From a virus: DNA of 64,000 nt. A model generated the notes under the pieces. That model was given only the letters and a program-made list of their open reading frames with translations, did no database searches and was not told where the DNA came from. The position numbers and the translations under genes were made by a program. Location of the stretch: positions 32,001 through 96,000 of the IMG/VR virus record IMGVR_UViG_3300017917_003565. The stretch is one strand, 5' to 3'. Positions 5,915-33,218 of this stretch are shown one piece after another (position 1 is the stretch's first letter; every line of letters begins with the position of its first letter).

Positions 5915-6133
5915 TTATCGGCGCCGGGTAATACGTCCGCGGGTGAGATCATACGGGCTGAACTCGATTTCTACAACATCGCCCAACAACACTCGTATAT
6001 GATTCATGCGCATGCGGCCAGAAAGGCTGGCTAAAACGGGTTTTTCAAACTGTTCAAGTTGCACACGGTACATGGTATTTGGTAACACGTCTGACACGAC
6101 GCCTTCCATTTTGATCACATCATCTTTGCTCAA
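5915..6133 (-). CDS. infA: Translation initiation factor IF-1
   Basis: MSKDDVIKMEG.V...LPN..YRV...SGRMR.N.IRVL.GD.V..E.SPYDLTRGRI..R. Confidence 0.96.
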   Translation of the reverse strand: MSKDDVIKMEGVVSDVLPNTMYRVQLEQFEKPVLASLSGRMRMNHIRVLLGDVVEIEFSPYDLTRGRITRRR

Positions 6134-6931: not shown

Positions 6932-6960
6932 ATTATAGCACGATAGGAGTTTTTGGTCAA
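6932..6960 (-). promoter_or_regulatory. Sigma70-type early promoter
   Basis: TTGACC-17-TATAAT. Confidence 0.8.
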
Positions 6961-6965
6961 CCATA

Positions 6966-7280
6966 TTATTTGAACAGTATCATGGCCATGATCACGGCCT
7001 GTAGTATAAACCCAAGCCCAATAGTGATGACATTCAGCATGTCTTTGAGCACTACGGCCCGGAAAAACAACAGGATTAGGCCAGTCCACATGAACAACAC
7101 AATGTCCAGATTGGGTACCGTGTCGCTAAGTCCAGTCAACAGTGCAAGAAGCGTGGGCACGGTGGCACAGTGTATGACCACCACGGCCAACCAGCCCAGG
7201 GTTTCAGCACTTACTTTGGGCAAGTGTTGTTCTAACCAAGTTCTTGCAGATTTCAAATAAGCGTCTAATTTTTCGATCAT
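6966..7280 (-). CDS. Three-TM membrane protein
   Basis: Hydrophobic helices; coupled to the SleB gene. Confidence 0.65.
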   Translation of the reverse strand: MIEKLDAYLKSARTWLEQHLPKVSAETLGWLAVVVIHCATVPTLLALLTGLSDTVPNLDIVLFMWTGLILLFFRAVVLKDMLNVITIGLGFILQAVIMAMILFK

Positions 7281-7837
7281 AGTTTTTCCGCATAAAAGAT
7301 GTGTCTCCCAAACTTGGCCACTTGAGGTTTACCCCATTGTGGTTTTATATAATCCGCATGGAAATACAGCGCATTCTTCACGCTGGGCAAGCGGAAGCCC
7401 TCTAGCAGGACTTTTTTGGCCACTTCTTCGGCTTCGCGCCAGTGAGCTGCATAAATGGGCCGGACACGGCTGGTGCCATCACAGAACCATGAGAACTGGC
7501 AGACCACTCGATCATAGACCACATTTTTTTGATACACAACGCCGCAGATGTCCGGAGCAAATCTGCCAGACTCCACGCGATTGATAGTGACCTGGGCCAC
7601 GGCTACTTTGCCTTCAAAGGGCTCAGTGGCGGCTTCCCAGTAGATGTTGCGTGTCAAACAGTCCAGTTGTTTGGTACGATCTGCCACGCTGATGAACCCT
7701 TGACGGGCGGCTTCATTGGTGCTTTTGAGGGCATCCAGTTTGGAATCAGTCACAGCGGTCACTGCGATGATCACGGCCAAGAAGCTGGCCAGTTTTACTG
7801 CTATGCTACCTAGATTGGACTTTGAAGAGATCTTCAA
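7277..7837 (-). CDS. Cell wall hydrolase, SleB/Hydrolase_2 family
   Basis: CL..NIYWEA..E...G..AVAQV..NRV, ICGVVYQ, CQFSW, ALYFHA.Y..P.W, GRHIFY; TTG start after AAGGAG; N-terminal TM. Confidence 0.9.
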   Translation of the reverse strand: MKISSKSNLGSIAVKLASFLAVIIAVTAVTDSKLDALKSTNEAARQGFISVADRTKQLDCLTRNIYWEAATEPFEGKVAVAQVTINRVESGRFAPDICGVVYQKNVVYDRVVCQFSWFCDGTSRVRPIYAAHWREAEEVAKKVLLEGFRLPSVKNALYFHADYIKPQWGKPQVAKFGRHIFYAEKL

Positions 7838-7844
7838 TGTTTTC

Positions 7845-8122
7845 TCCTTCGGGCTCAAGTGGGCCGTTTCACCGGAGGTCCAGGATGGACACATTGACAG
7901 AAGCGTGGGCTAAAGAAAAGACCTCGGGCCTTCTTTGGCATACTGTCCTGGCGCGGTTTTGTCTTTCCCCGGGCCTGTACCATTTGTCAATGAAGAGGAT
8001 TTCCGAAGTCCTCTTGTAAAAGTGACCAGCTTCCCGGCACTGGTCGATCCGTTTTGGAGTAGATCTAGATTGTAATCTTCCGCTGATCGAATCAACGACA
8101 GCCGGATTGTTTTTTCTACTCT
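7845..8122 (-). ncRNA. Candidate structured RNA / long structured leader upstream of the SleB gene
   Basis: At least 6 stems plus a CCAGGA/TCCTGG pseudoknot; begins just after TAAGTA (8129-8134). Confidence 0.55.
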
Positions 8123-8200
8123 CTAAAATACTTAGTTTGTCATGAAAATCAGGCTCAAATAACCATGATTTTTCCAGCGTTTTTACCATAATATACAGCT

Positions 8201-8230
8201 ATTATAGCGCATCGCCGGTACGGTTGTCAA
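8201..8230 (-). promoter_or_regulatory. Sigma70-type promoter
   Basis: TTGACA-18-TATAAT. Confidence 0.7.
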
Positions 8231-8751
8231 TCCACATTGGGCGGAGGCATGGCCTTTAGTTTATCCCACACTGATTGTTTTTCTTTGATGTGTTTTTCCA
8301 AAGCTCGATAGCGATCACCCAGTTCTCGCAGTTCCTGCCATTCAGATTCCAGAGCTGGATTTACGGTCAACAGATTCAATCTTTCTCGAATTTCGCGTAT
8401 GGAGCCCATGAGACTTTCGCCATTGATTTCGATGTCAGCATCTTCACCGTTGACTTGTAGTTTGGCACCGGTGGGATTGCTGGTAATCCAGGGAGCCACG
8501 GTAGCTGTCCCTGTGTTGGTCCAAACATTGGGATAAGCATACCCGTTGGTCCCACTGACGTTATTGATCGCAGTAAGATCGCTGATGGTCAGAGTGGGCA
8601 CCGTGCCGCTGGCAGTGTAATAATCACCATCACCACTGTAGGAACCAATATGGCTGAAATCGAGCGTGATGCTGTTATTGTCATTGATGATGATGCTGTC
8701 ATCCATGGTTTGAGAGGCTGTGCCCGGAGGCACATTTATTGTAAGTGACAT
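8227..8751 (-). CDS. Hypothetical protein
   Basis: 174 aa; Thr-rich N-terminus, coiled-coil C-terminus. Confidence 0.65.
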   Translation of the reverse strand: MSLTINVPPGTASQTMDDSIIINDNNSITLDFSHIGSYSGDGDYYTASGTVPTLTISDLTAINNVSGTNGYAYPNVWTNTGTATVAPWITSNPTGAKLQVNGEDADIEINGESLMGSIREIRERLNLLTVNPALESEWQELRELGDRYRALEKHIKEKQSVWDKLKAMPPPNVD

Positions 8752-9839
8752 TAGGCTTTCCTTTCGAACTCACGCATGAATTCCACCAGTGCTTGTACGC
8801 CTGCCACAGGCATGGCGTTGTAGATGCAGGCACGCATACCGCCGGCCAGTTTGTGCCCACGCAGAGCTATCAGCCCTGCTTCGGTTGATTGGGTCAAAAA
8901 CTTTTCATTCAATCCTTCATCTTTGAGATAAAACGTCACATTGGCCCGAGAACGGCACTCCGGACTGACCCGATTTTCATACAGCGAACTGGAATCAATG
9001 TAGTCGTACAACAAAGATGACTTGATTTTGCCAAGCCGTTCCATTTCTGCCACTCCGCCTTGGCGTTTGAGCCATTTCAACACCAGTCCAGAAACATAGA
9101 TTGCAAAAGTAGGTGGAGTGTTTACCCAAGGCACAGTATTTTTGGCCCAGTCCCAAATGGTCGGAGTTATGGGCATGGCGTGTCCCAACAGATCCCGGCG
9201 AACTATGACCACAGTGACTCCGGCTGGCCCTATGTTTTTTTGTGCTGCAGCAAACAACACTCCGCACTTACTGACGTCCATGTGCCTTGATAGGATATTG
9301 CTAGAGACATCAGCCACTAATGGCACTCCCGCGGTATCAGGAAAATCTTCAAACTCCACTCCGCCTACAGTTTCGTTGGAACAGATATGCACATAAGCTG
9401 CATCTTGAGAGAGATTCCATTGATCGCGATCTGGAATGCTGGTAAACTGACCATTGGATGGACAAGCCACGATGTTTGCCTGCCCATATTTTTGTGCTTC
9501 TTGGGCCGACATCTCAGACCAGATACCAGTGACAACAAAATCAGCTGTGCGATTCTTGGACAATGGCAAGAGATTCATGGGTATGGCTGCATTTTGTCCA
9601 ATACCTCCTCCCTGCAACATCAATATTTCATAGTCATCGGGAATCGCCATCAACTCACGTAGGTCAGCCAATGTTTCATAATAGACTTCTAAGAACTCCT
9701 GGCTACGATGGTTGAGTTCCATCATGCTGGTGCCTACACCGTTCCAGTTCAACATTTCGTCGGCGACCTGTTGTAGGACTTCTTCAGGTAGAGCCGACGG
9801 TCCGGGAGTGAAGTTGTAAACCCGATGATCAAACTTCAT
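8751..9839 (-). CDS. serC: Phosphoserine aminotransferase
   Basis: YNF.PGP..LP, HRS, LQGGG, CSNET..G, DVSS, AQKNIGPAG (PLP Lys), NTPPTF, GH...GG.RA..YNA. Confidence 0.95.
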   Translation of the reverse strand: MKFDHRVYNFTPGPSALPEEVLQQVADEMLNWNGVGTSMMELNHRSQEFLEVYYETLADLRELMAIPDDYEILMLQGGGIGQNAAIPMNLLPLSKNRTADFVVTGIWSEMSAQEAQKYGQANIVACPSNGQFTSIPDRDQWNLSQDAAYVHICSNETVGGVEFEDFPDTAGVPLVADVSSNILSRHMDVSKCGVLFAAAQKNIGPAGVTVVIVRRDLLGHAMPITPTIWDWAKNTVPWVNTPPTFAIYVSGLVLKWLKRQGGVAEMERLGKIKSSLLYDYIDSSSLYENRVSPECRSRANVTFYLKDEGLNEKFLTQSTEAGLIALRGHKLAGGMRACIYNAMPVAGVQALVEFMREFERKA

Positions 9840-10879: not shown

Positions 10880-11190
10880 TGTAAGTGCCCGGCTACCTTA
10901 TGTCACAGGCCCCGGGCTGGAATAATACCAATTCGATGTGCTGTTTACTATCCCGCCGCAGTCGGTGTGGCCAAGTTTAAGGACTCACTACCACCAACCC
11001 GCACCACTAAGGCTGGTGCGCCGCCCTTCATTTGCCCCGAAGCCGGGTTGACATAGGTTTTGCTACTGGACTATTTGCTAGACCTCAACGGCTTTACTCG
11101 AGTTTACGGTTTATTGATCTAGTTAGTCAGGCTTGATCCGGTCCATCGCTTCCAATAGCAAAACCTATATCAGGGGGCGAACCCCCTGTG
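10880..11190 (-). ncRNA. Candidate structured ncRNA cluster
   Basis: About 310 nt without an ORF; UUCG hairpin, 21-bp closing stem around a three-way junction, further hairpins; G-U pairs work only on the minus strand. Confidence 0.6.
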
Positions 11191-32000: not shown

Positions 32001-33218
32001 GAAATCCGCTTGGTTTCTGTTCAAGGCAGCATTGAAATGCAGGCTGACAACGCATTCCGTGTACAGACCAGTTATGACGGTCCCAATGTCATATATGGCA
32101 GCCGCTGGGAATTCAGCAACAACGAAATCGTCAACATCACCGGTGATTTTGGCATTGTGTCTGAAGTAGGAAACCTCACCCTGTCGGGCGGACGTGATGG
32201 TGTCAACAGCGGCAATACCACAGTGCGAGCAGTTAATGTTGGCGTGTTGGTTGCTGACTGGGTATTTGACAACACTGGCAATCTTACAGCACCCGGAAAT
32301 ATCATCACTACTGCCAATGTGTACGGTGATGTAGGATTGTTCAATGACATCAATCTTAATAATGCCGGCACTAACCGTATGCTCTATGTTGATGGTGATC
32401 GCAACATCTACGACACTGATTTCTCTTATGATTCAGCTAACAGTGTTATATCTGGCACCGGCAACATCATAGCTGGTTATTTCATTGGTGACGGTAGTCA
32501 ACTTACAGGGTTGTCATCAAGTTATGGCAATGCCAACGTAGACGTTTACCTTAGCAGTGGCACCATGTCAGCTAATATCATTACCACAGGTAATGTAGAT
32601 AGTGCCAATGTCAACACCAGCAGAATGGTTATAGGCAATATTGGTGGTAGCAGTATTTCTGCCGATGGTCGTATTTTCACCAGCGGCAACGTAGTAGCTG
32701 GCAATGTCAACTCCAATGGCATACTGTTTTCAACCGGCAATATCGTTGGTCCACATGTCAATGTCACTGGCAACGTAGTGGCCGGCAATGTCAACTCCAA
32801 TGGCGTTATTTTTGCCACTGGTAATATTACTGCCGTGGGTAATATTATTACTTCGGCCAACGTAGTGGGCAACACCTCGGGCTACACCATTGGTTACAGA
32901 GATATACCACAGGTGGCTTTTTCAGCCAATACTACCGCAGCTCTTATTGACGCTGGTAAACATTATTATTCCACTACAGCAGGTAACTTGAATCTAACTT
33001 TGCCCGATGATTCATCGGTGACATTCCCAGATGGCGCTACATTGACCATTGTACTCAATGCCGCAGGTAATGTCTTGGTCAGCCAAGGAACAGGTGTTAC
33101 CCTGTACCAAGCCGGTAGCGCAACTACAGGAAATCGAGTGGTAGGAGCCTATGGACTGGCCACAGTGATGAAAGTGTCTGCCAATACCTGGGTGATCAAC
33201 GGAACAGGAGTGTACTAA
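29064..33218 (+). CDS. Long tail fibre-like protein (1384 aa)
   Basis: NIG..PNDGTGDPLRTAF...N.NF N-terminus; dozens of TGN(V/I)..GN repeats; C-terminal IGYRDIPQ ... W.I.G domain; TAAATA at 29036-29041. Confidence 0.85.
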   Translation: MTQYVINIGALPNDGTGDPLRTAFNEVNLNFDQVFAAGPVLSNIRIANNTILTTNTNGNLVLAPNGIGLVQSNVSIVPNSANIRNLGSADRRWSTVYTQYLDVSANLTISGNIIYNGDLNVAGNLTVNGDLIEVGNIVTDSKTIQLANTAGTTAAANGSGITVGANDLIATYLFDSSADAWTTNIGITAVGNIAAPYFLGNGSQLSGVRADTLVGNTLSSNVLFSSLTSVGTLTALNVTGNVSATGNIIGGNVETTGLITATGNIIGGNITTTGNVSADYVIVAGGIVAEASASPAPSLSGFGNITSGNLITTGMVTATGNVTGGNVASGNLITGVTLQVSDATVYGNVDSVMVNATGNVVAGQYFIGDGSLLTGIGASYNDADVANLLAAFGANIINSTGNITTTANVSGGYILGDGSQLTNLPVQPGTYGDSNVVTLLGAFGSNNVSTTGNITAGLLIGNGSVLTDITGANVTGTVANASYATSAGSATTATSATTANTVTDAAQPNITSVGTLTSVTSSGNVQGGNLLTGGLISAAGNVTGAYIFGNGSQLTDINAVTIDITDTNGLTTVYYPTFVENRSTGQIARADVDLSYRTDTNTLTVGNLSATGNVTGTFILGNGSQLTGIISSYGDSNVATLLANFGSNAVSTTGNVTSGNLTTSGTVSATGNVNSNEINANRAVLGNIGGSSISADGRIFTSGNVVAGNVNSNGILFSTGNIVGPHVNVTGNVVAGNVNSNGLLFAVGNIVGANLDSYGIITAIGNVTTNANVNANNLHASNRLSVTGNIVAGNVNSNGLLFATGNVVGGNVNSNGRIFASGNIQGANIDTTGSISAVGNVIGDYFFGNGSQLTGIVVSGGTSIDNGISNVSIASANGPITVSYNGSGNTWTFGNTSVPQALYWPDGSFQATAFVGQATDLVSTGNATITSDALGVSYVWTFDDIGNLTLPTNGSIVVDGGDGAIGPVSDDLVISWDNEEIRLVSVQGSIEMQADNAFRVQTSYDGPNVIYGSRWEFSNNEIVNITGDFGIVSEVGNLTLSGGRDGVNSGNTTVRAVNVGVLVADWVFDNTGNLTAPGNIITTANVYGDVGLFNDINLNNAGTNRMLYVDGDRNIYDTDFSYDSANSVISGTGNIIAGYFIGDGSQLTGLSSSYGNANVDVYLSSGTMSANIITTGNVDSANVNTSRMVIGNIGGSSISADGRIFTSGNVVAGNVNSNGILFSTGNIVGPHVNVTGNVVAGNVNSNGVIFATGNITAVGNIITSANVVGNTSGYTIGYRDIPQVAFSANTTAALIDAGKHYYSTTAGNLNLTLPDDSSVTFPDGATLTIVLNAAGNVLVSQGTGVTLYQAGSATTGNRVVGAYGLATVMKVSANTWVINGTGVY
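31119..32804 (+). repeat. 171-bp direct repeat pair within the fibre gene (31119-31289 and 32634-32804)
   Basis: Both copies encode GNIGGSSISADGRIFTSGNVVAGNVNSNGILFSTGNIVGPHVNVTGNVVAGNVNSNG. Confidence 0.9.

Follow-up and report, generated by a model that had tools for sequence, protein, structure and literature searches.

A large pseudoknotted leader RNA, crossed by an open reading frame, precedes the endolysin gene of a freshwater jumbo phage and may gate its translation

The DNA analyzed here is a stretch of 64,000 nucleotides (nt), referred to below as the window, that covers positions 32,001–96,000 of the IMG/VR record IMGVR_UViG_3300017917_003565. The record is 112 kilobases (kb) long and has a CheckV completeness of 33%, and we therefore consider its source a jumbo phage. 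On the minus strand the window carries a lysis cassette composed of a SleB-type cell-wall hydrolase and a small holin-like protein, and the hydrolase gene is preceded by a leader of ~360 nt, counted from the promoter, of which ~300 nt are a conserved RNA fold, the subject of this report. The hydrolase (7277–7837) is matched by Pfam Hydrolase_2 (E = 2.3e-24) and by PHROG endolysin (E = 4.7e-19), its relatives align with it from residue 1, and it is probably a signal-anchor-release (SAR) endolysin. The second protein of the cassette, of 104 amino acids (aa; 6966–7280), was matched by neither Pfam nor PHROG, has a homologue downstream of the hydrolase in 61 of the 93 loci compared, and would act as the holin. 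The features of the locus, including an open reading frame (ORF) in the leader, are the following:

ending at 8227, minus strand: gene for a 174-aa protein of unassigned function, the stop of which overlaps the −35 box of the promoter
8201–8230, minus strand: sigma-70-type promoter with TTGACA (8230–8225), an 18-nt spacer and TATAAT (8206–8201), 12/12 consensus
8188–8205, no strand: inverted repeat ATAATA (8205–8200)/TATTAT (8193–8188), read from the sequence, overlapping the −10 box and the leader ATG
7869–8189, minus strand: leader ORF of 106 codons, ATG at 8189–8187 and TGA at 7871–7869, crossing the whole fold and stopping inside helix S1
8135–8186, minus strand: 5′ extension of the leader, with conserved A-runs (GGYAAAAA .. 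AAAAT .. TTATTTG) and, directly ahead of CTAAGTA, a hairpin that varies; present in all classes of relatives
7829–8134, minus strand: core conserved RNA, beginning at TAAGTA and reaching 9 nt into the hydrolase gene, matched by the covariance model R1 (303 bits, E = 1.7e-119)
7877–7874, minus strand: candidate anti-Shine-Dalgarno sequence CUCC, overlapping the 3′ strand of helix P2 and able to pair with GGAG of the Shine-Dalgarno (SD) sequence
7844–7848, minus strand: SD sequence of the hydrolase, AAGGAG (AGGAG at 7848–7844), read from the sequence
7822–7837, minus strand: small hairpin UUGAAG/CUUCAA in predicted folds, containing the TTG start (7837–7835)
7277–7837, minus strand: cell-wall hydrolase of the SleB type (186 aa), with a membrane anchor at the N-terminus and a TTG start at 7837–7835
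6966–7280, minus strand: 104-aa protein with three hydrophobic segments, the ATG of which overlaps the hydrolase stop (ATGA)

Relatives of the hydrolase number in the hundreds in IMG/VR, the nearest ones sharing 73–83% nucleotide identity with the window in the upstream region; no cultivated relative was found, the hydrolase sharing at most ~41% identity with proteins of isolates. An invariant 23-nt motif was used to retrieve loci and matched 49 viral loci in IMG/VR and at least 120 metagenome contigs, the names of which read as lake samples. Among 185,579 species genomes only two matches occurred, in metagenome-assembled genomes of Bdellovibrionales and Dehalococcoidia (L131 and L132, on contigs of 3.5 kb and 2.4 kb), and these are probably mis-binned phage fragments that are uninformative on the host. 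In brief, 24 sequences were aligned with plain MAFFT (alignment A2), R1 was built from A2, and 93 copies of the RNA (92 distinct sequences) were aligned to the model. The R1 alignment is fitted to the model and therefore leans towards the structure, while A2 is independent of it. The structure scored against slid controls, a curated one, has 12 helices and two pseudoknots.

The fold is real and under selection at the RNA level. In A2, compensatory changes are present in 25 of the 61 pairs of the RNAalifold consensus, and the curated structure is 95.2% paired across the 24 sequences, with double changes in 26 pairs as opposed to at most 8 in the slid controls. The R1 alignment of the 92 distinct sequences, with which the MAFFT result agrees in direction, has 93.8% of its cells paired, double changes in 43 of 60 pairs and a covariation of 0.366 (at most 0.056 in the controls). 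Folded as a single sequence, the window RNA was not more stable than its shuffles (z = −0.89), so the support for the fold is comparative and not thermodynamic. Its helices and pseudoknots are as follows:

8057–8121, minus strand: P1 (8121–8115 with 8063–8057) enclosing P1a (8102–8096 with 8089–8082), all pairs double-changed among the 92 sequences
7873–8051, minus strand: P2, long-range closing helix of CGGA (8051–8048) with UCCG (7876–7873), 91–100% paired
8025–8044, minus strand: P3, hairpin with a conserved GCCGYAAA loop, double changes in 6/6 pairs
7993–8015, minus strand: P4, hairpin AAGAGGA/UCCUCUU with the loop CUUCGGAAA, 99.8% paired
7922–8008, minus strand: pseudoknot PK1, P4 loop CUUCGG (8008–8003) with CCGAGG (7927–7922), 99.1% paired
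7892–7992, minus strand: P5, long-range helix of CAUUGACA (7992–7985) with UGUCAAUG (7899–7892), 94% paired
7950–7975, minus strand: P6, hairpin with a conserved GAAACAAA-type loop, double changes in 6/6 pairs, 95% paired
7928–7939, minus strand: P7, weak 3-base-pair (bp) hairpin GCC/GGC, 72–79% paired
7878–7890, minus strand: P8, hairpin GUCCA/UGGAC (GYCCA/UGGRC in the family), containing TCCTGG, 92.5% paired
7851–7872, minus strand: 3′ H-type pseudoknot, S1 (7872–7870 with 7861–7859) and S2 (7866–7862 with 7855–7851), ending 3 nt before the SD sequence

Examples from P1 and P1a are pairs that read GC/AU in 35/31 and AU/UA/GC in 32/27/10 sequences; the inner two pairs of P4 change from GC to AU (67/23) and from AU to CG (61/25), one pair of P5 is AU in 61, GC in 25 and GU in 6 sequences, and the second pair of P8 is CG in 53, UA in 18 and UG in 6. 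Both pseudoknots covary. One pair of PK1 occurs as UG (62), CG (17), GU (6), AU (2) and UA (1), S1 of the 3′ pseudoknot as CG (68) and GC (20), and S2 has double changes in 5/5 pairs and is 90% paired; in the window itself, S2 has only three good pairs. Variation in P2 is limited (CG 69, UG 16, GC 2), which makes it the weakest of the long-range helices, and P7, the register of which slips between GCC/GGC and GGC/GCC, is not firmly supported. The natural deletion variants L093 and L111 retain the core from P4 to S2 intact. Three further pairings were tried and rejected, as by eye their partners do not covary: the 5′ CUAAG with an internal CUUAG, CUAAG/UAUGG as an 11-nt tetraloop-receptor, and an internal GAGAGUA with the 3′ strand of P1 as an alternative.

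A sequence-only reading of the window, made without relatives or databases, had already described an unusually complex, pseudoknotted minus-strand RNA before a SleB-like hydrolase, and its sequence, strand and coordinates for the element are correct. The stems it drew as GAGTAGA/TCTACTC (P1, 8121–8115/8063–8057), an inner GCTG../..CAGC arm (P1a), AAGAGGA/TCCTCTT (P4) and CATTGACA/TGTCAATG (P5, 7992–7985/7899–7892) all show compensatory changes in relatives, as does its GACCAG/CTGGTC stem in the form ACCAG/CTGGT (P3). The other pairings it proposed are specific to the window and not supported by the comparison: a 10-bp GGGGAAAGAC/GTCTTTTCTT stem is 66% paired in 24 relatives, no better than shuffled columns, and has its central G-C pair in the window only; a CCG-GTGAAA-CGG hairpin is likewise 66% paired in 24 relatives and no better than shuffled columns; and a CCAGGA/TCCTGG pseudoknot, also 66% paired, is equal to or below slid controls, TCCTGG lying in P8. 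G-U pairs do fix the strand, as had been argued, one P3 pair being U-G in 24/24 sequences and one PK1 pair in 62/92. The unit reaches further 5′ than the start placed directly after TAAGTA in that reading: sequence conservation begins at the promoter (8230–8201) and continues downstream from there.

The match at 7829–8134 is the sole R1 match in the window and in the 112-kb record, and five phage records have one copy each, among them a complete, terminally repeated genome of 337 kb. In 90 of the 93 loci a hydrolase homologue comes next after the RNA, the other three being contig ends. The RNA enters the ribosome-binding site (RBS) of the hydrolase without a terminator, and no terminator-like minus-strand site was seen between the two. 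A covariation-supported structure thus stands in a fixed position before one class of genes with no terminator between them, as is characteristic of cis-regulatory structured leaders.

The sequence-only reading could not match the RNA to RNase P, tmRNA, SRP or introns, and a check with covariance models extends this to all of Rfam 15: the 64-kb window contains no family match that reaches the gathering score, and for 7600–8400 nothing was returned even with E relaxed to 10. The unmatched families include RNase P, tmRNA, SRP, 6S, group I/II introns, T-box and ydaO/c-di-AMP, as well as preQ1, SAM-II, GOLLD, ROOL, HEARO and the self-cleaving ribozymes. Ten related loci gave no Rfam match either, except for three sub-threshold chance matches elsewhere in them, a blastn search of the region against 50,697 phage records returned no match, and no description of the motif was found in the literature searched.

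With the promoter at 8230–8201, transcription would start near 8194, and the hydrolase TTG lies ~365 nt beyond the promoter. In most relatives the same TATAAT stands 72 nt before TAAGTA. The leader ATG at 8189 follows TATAAT by 12 nt and would be ~5 nt from the transcript start. From there, the leader ORF runs through the fold and stops 32 nt before the hydrolase start. Of the 40 relatives that have both the distal promoter and the ATG, 37 show no in-frame stop over ~315 nt, while each of the other frames has 4–10. The length of the ORF varies between 93 and 129 codons, and its stop falls from ~70 nt before to ~30 nt after the hydrolase start, overlapping it as TTGA in 11 of 50 distinct cases; an upstream frame that ends at or near a downstream start is what is expected of a translationally coupled upstream ORF. 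The divergent classes L082, L088 and L118 have the long ORF as well, and the deletion variants L093, L206 and L143 retain it. When chimeras were made from the 38 open class-1 sequences, 11% of the column-shuffled and 23–32% of the block-shuffled ones stayed open, compared with 38/38 of the real ones, and the presence of the ATG tracks openness (38/10 vs. 0/12, Fisher p = 4.6e-7), neither test being corrected for phylogeny.

Of 50 sequences, 49 read from the ATG to P5 in one constant frame; the remaining one, the window, shifts frame at P4–P5. Three frames are in use at P7 (32/11/7 sequences) and at P8 (21/10/7). Entropy by codon position is 0.45/0.56/0.47 in the leader ORF, without the third-position excess of the hydrolase (0.68/0.55/1.28), and the leader peptide has no Pfam or PHROG match. 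A stop-free frame combined with the lack of codon periodicity and with frame switching argues that the openness of the frame is under selection and the peptide is not. The element had been called a non-coding insert, and the sequence-only reading had named a conserved protein at 7869–8189 without covariation as the finding that would speak against its RNA: the frame is indeed kept open through the fold in most lineages, so that the leader is not simply non-coding, but it is not conserved as a protein, and the covariation is strong. A fusion of the leader ORF to the hydrolase by frameshifting or readthrough was considered and rejected, as the frame relation varies among relatives and no slippery site was seen.

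The open frame is not present everywhere. Among 60 distinct class-1 sequences, 22 have no long ORF (an 8-codon ORF or none), mostly with ACG in place of ATG or a stop at codon 9, and these often have a second TATAAT 8 nt before TAAGTA. The fold is therefore the universal feature and the long ORF a frequent companion.

Several features could mask the hydrolase start. The TTG codon sits in its small hairpin, and a 5-bp complement of the start region follows it in 26 of 38 TTG-start relatives, as opposed to 19% in shuffles. The centroid fold of the window's 3′ domain contains the pairing CUCC:GGAG, and of the relatives shown, most have it in their predicted folds. As CUCC overlaps the 3′ strand of P2, formation of P2 and masking of the SD sequence would be mutually exclusive in this model, which is the logic of an expression platform.

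The 5′ part of the leader has conserved elements of its own. In the hairpin within 8135–8186 the arms differ in sequence among relatives yet stay complementary, as judged by eye, and CTAAGTA at the 5′ edge of the fold is kept in every class. In one locus with a leader of only ~50 nt (L017:2850–2925), CTAAGTAT is still present at the 5′ edge. Instead of belonging to the fold, this motif may mark a start or serve in processing or protein binding; its GU|AUU fits the preference of RNase E. CTAAGTA was also considered as a general promoter motif and discarded, with one exact copy in 64 kb and near-matches at chance level. The inverted repeat at 8188–8205 looks like a site for a dimeric regulator, a putative operator that might place transcription under control as well; at the same position, other classes (L082 and L088) have other palindromes, CATTAAC/GTTAATG and GTTATAATA/TATTATAAC.

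We tentatively read the ~360-nt endolysin leader as a cis-acting translational gate that is opened, at least partly, by the transit of ribosomes, an explanation that we regard as quite possible though short of probable. With a consensus host-type promoter, the endolysin mRNA would be made early, and for a lysis enzyme any restraint would then have to act after transcription. The folded leader would keep the hydrolase start poorly accessible through the weak TTG in its hairpin, the pseudoknot against the SD sequence and the anti-SD CUCC, which could pair with GGAG whenever P2 is open. Ribosomes initiating on the near-leaderless leader ORF would melt the fold, including P2, S1 and S2, and on stopping at 7871–7869 their footprint would uncover the SD sequence 22 nt downstream, so that the outcome would be coupling by unmasking or by re-initiation at the hydrolase start. 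In lineages without the long ORF, another trigger, e.g., a ligand, a protein or RNA processing, would open the gate. A homologue of initiation factor IF-1 (72 aa, 5915–6133, minus strand, Pfam PF01176, E = 3.6e-21) is encoded 1.1 kb downstream of the lysis cassette, and it may matter for initiation on such a near-leaderless ORF.

A number of observations weigh against a gate worked by ribosomes. Because 22 of the 60 class-1 sequences have no long ORF, ribosome transit cannot be the universal mechanism, and this third of the relatives keeps every helix and invariant junction, so the fold must have a partner or an activity of its own. The elaborate, sequence-invariant core likewise exceeds what simple masking needs and points to such a partner or activity. 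The leader ATG has no SD sequence and, with ~5 nt probably in front of it, is not strictly leaderless. The CUCC:GGAG helix is only 4 bp long, with both sides invariant and thus beyond the reach of covariation, and it is weaker in relatives with AUCCG. The 3′ domain of the window folds no better than its shuffles (z = −0.17), none of the z-scores being significant, and the predicted accessibility of the SD sequence is intermediate (mean unpaired probability of 0.38).

If the fold has a partner, the core could be the aptamer of a riboswitch for a small molecule that marks late infection, where binding would stabilize P2 and the pseudoknots and set the accessibility of the SD sequence, the ORF being secondary. 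We hold this to be unlikely but far from negligible; the riboswitch-like controller proposed in the sequence-only reading remains a live option. Many unpaired nucleotides in junctions and loops are invariant beside covarying stems, as befits an aptamer, the pseudoknot abuts the SD sequence, P2 and the predicted CUCC:GGAG helix would be mutually exclusive, and the fold is kept in lineages without the long ORF, with P4–P9 intact in the deletion variants; however, a single gene is associated with the RNA, and as it encodes a lysis enzyme and has no metabolic or transport role, no regulon hints at a ligand; at 300 nt the RNA is at the upper size limit for riboswitches, no known riboswitch model matches, and selection for translation straight through an aptamer would be unusual. 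Along the same line, the fold might be a true sensor (a riboswitch or an allosteric ribozyme), a lysis clock that joins a late-infection signal with ribosome traffic on a peptide-less ORF. We give this only a minor chance; if true, phage lysis would for the first time be known to be controlled by an RNA sensor, and an aptamer-sized fold selected to be translated through would be a rarity in itself. The partner might instead be a phage or host RNA-binding protein (a repressor, an activator or an RNase) that recognizes the fold or CUAAGUA/AGAGAGUA and times endolysin translation or mRNA processing. Pseudoknots adjacent to an SD sequence are classical protein operators (T4 gene 32, rpsO), CTAAGTA stands at the 5′ edge in every class, including the locus with the ~50-nt leader, a UAGAGAGUA-like motif is present twice in the RNA, and the IF-1 homologue is encoded 1.1 kb away. 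We nevertheless find such an operator or processing signal rather improbable, given that CTAAGTATTT is not repeated elsewhere in the window and that no candidate protein was identified.

The size and complexity of the RNA are also typical of ribozymes and large non-coding RNAs, its core sequence is invariant, and its 5′ boundary at TAAGTA is conserved while promoters sit at two distances from it, all of which would suit a self-cleaving or trans-acting RNA that is merely co-transcribed with the hydrolase. Such an independent RNA, which the sequence-only reading had also entertained, is very unlikely, as there is neither a terminator nor a gap before the RBS into which the RNA runs, the linkage to the hydrolase is strict (90/93 loci), no ribozyme or non-coding RNA of Rfam matches even at E = 10, and the leader ORF crosses the RNA. 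Least credible is that 7869–8189 simply encodes a small basic protein of 106 aa and that the RNA structure is incidental. The ORF is open in most lineages and its frame constant from the ATG to P5 in nearly all sequences; against this stand the missing third-position excess, the three frames in its 3′ third, the frame shift of the window at P4–P5, the 22 of 60 relatives that lost the ORF and kept the fold, the stems preserved by compensatory changes, and the absence of any family match for the peptide. As far as these comparisons go, a protein-coding explanation appears largely refuted and nearly excluded.

Restraint of a phage endolysin by its leader has a precedent in the lysozyme gene e of T4, for which the literature describes early transcripts silenced by leader RNA structure (McPheeters et al. 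1986, reviewed in PMC3014915). As in our reading of the present leader, structure in an endolysin mRNA blocks translation from upstream or early promoters and averts premature lysis. In that account of gene e, SD sequence and start are held in the helix of one short hairpin, and relief comes from internal late promoters that give shorter transcripts. The element described here, in contrast, comprises ~300 nt, 12 helices and two pseudoknots and is crossed by a leader ORF, and the two are not detectably related in sequence. Inside 8134–7838, neither a TATAAATA-type site nor any other that resembles a promoter was seen, and the second TATAAT of some relatives lies 8 nt before the whole fold and not inside it.

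A compact pseudoknot just 5′ of the SD sequence is shared with the operators of the T4 gene 32 leader and of Escherichia coli rpsO/S15; it could entrap the 30S subunit, keep it out or seed the binding of a protein. Those operators are shorter than 100 nt and are bound by the product of their own gene, whereas the present leader is a far larger fold that ends with the pseudoknot as its last module. Riboswitches of the H type (preQ1-I/II, SAM-II/V, fluoride) likewise have an H-type pseudoknot beside the RBS and, as predicted for the present leader, a mutually exclusive pairing that may serve as an expression platform, but they are 35–60 nt long, precede metabolic genes and hold the SD sequence inside the pseudoknot, whereas in our case the SD sequence lies 3 nt beyond the pseudoknot, and no Rfam match was obtained at E up to 10. 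In MS2, as proposed here, the structure-masked start of the lysis gene is reached by ribosomes that terminate nearby on the upstream coat frame; that frame encodes a real protein, while in the present leader no peptide is conserved and the frame coincides with a conserved tertiary-type fold. The leader is thus a member of none of these systems (T4 gene e, SD-pseudoknot operators, MS2-type coupling), to which it is closest in function.

Few cis-acting leaders seen in phages appear to be as large and intricate as the restraint proposed here. The RNA family is abundant, with its contigs in metagenomes and 93 aligned copies, while being absent from Rfam, and it joins features that are rarely combined, namely a tertiary-type fold with strong covariation and a reading frame that is kept open through it with no conserved peptide. 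It offers a testable model in which ribosome transit and RNA folding compete in setting the timing of a gene, and, being compact, it is a candidate both for structure determination and for the engineering of lysis control.

R1 gave nothing on Goslar (all scores < 9 bits) and nothing on 28 other hydrolase loci. More distant relatives of the hydrolase have other leaders, located behind sigma-70-like promoters: one class of ~100 nt with GTTATAGTAGT ... ACTACA (L013–L031, e.g., L014:2800–3010), and a second class of ~300 nt that looks structured and begins with AAGATAGTAG (L032–L034 and L038, e.g., L033:2700–3010). Both are without R1 or Rfam match, and both show an outer helix of the AGUAG...CUAC type and, close to the RBS, CUCC or ACCU resembling an anti-SD sequence. 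These leaders occupy the same position before a Hydrolase_2 lysis gene, are likewise long and conserved, in some cases with small ORFs inside, but are not homologous to the RNA described here, and the occurrence of non-homologous leaders before the same gene in related phages suggests that gating of SleB-type endolysins at the RNA level is general among jumbo phages.

Elsewhere on the minus strand of the window, a further ORF-free, GC-rich intergenic block (10880–11190), which R1 does not match, precedes a lipoprotein-like gene. The gene for the 174-aa protein is closely preceded by one for a class-V aminotransferase (SerC-like, 8751–9839, Pfam PF00266, E = 6.8e-48), and a second near-consensus sigma-70 promoter lies directly 3′ of the holin-like gene (6932–6960; TTGACC, 17 nt, TATAAT, with TG; 11/12).

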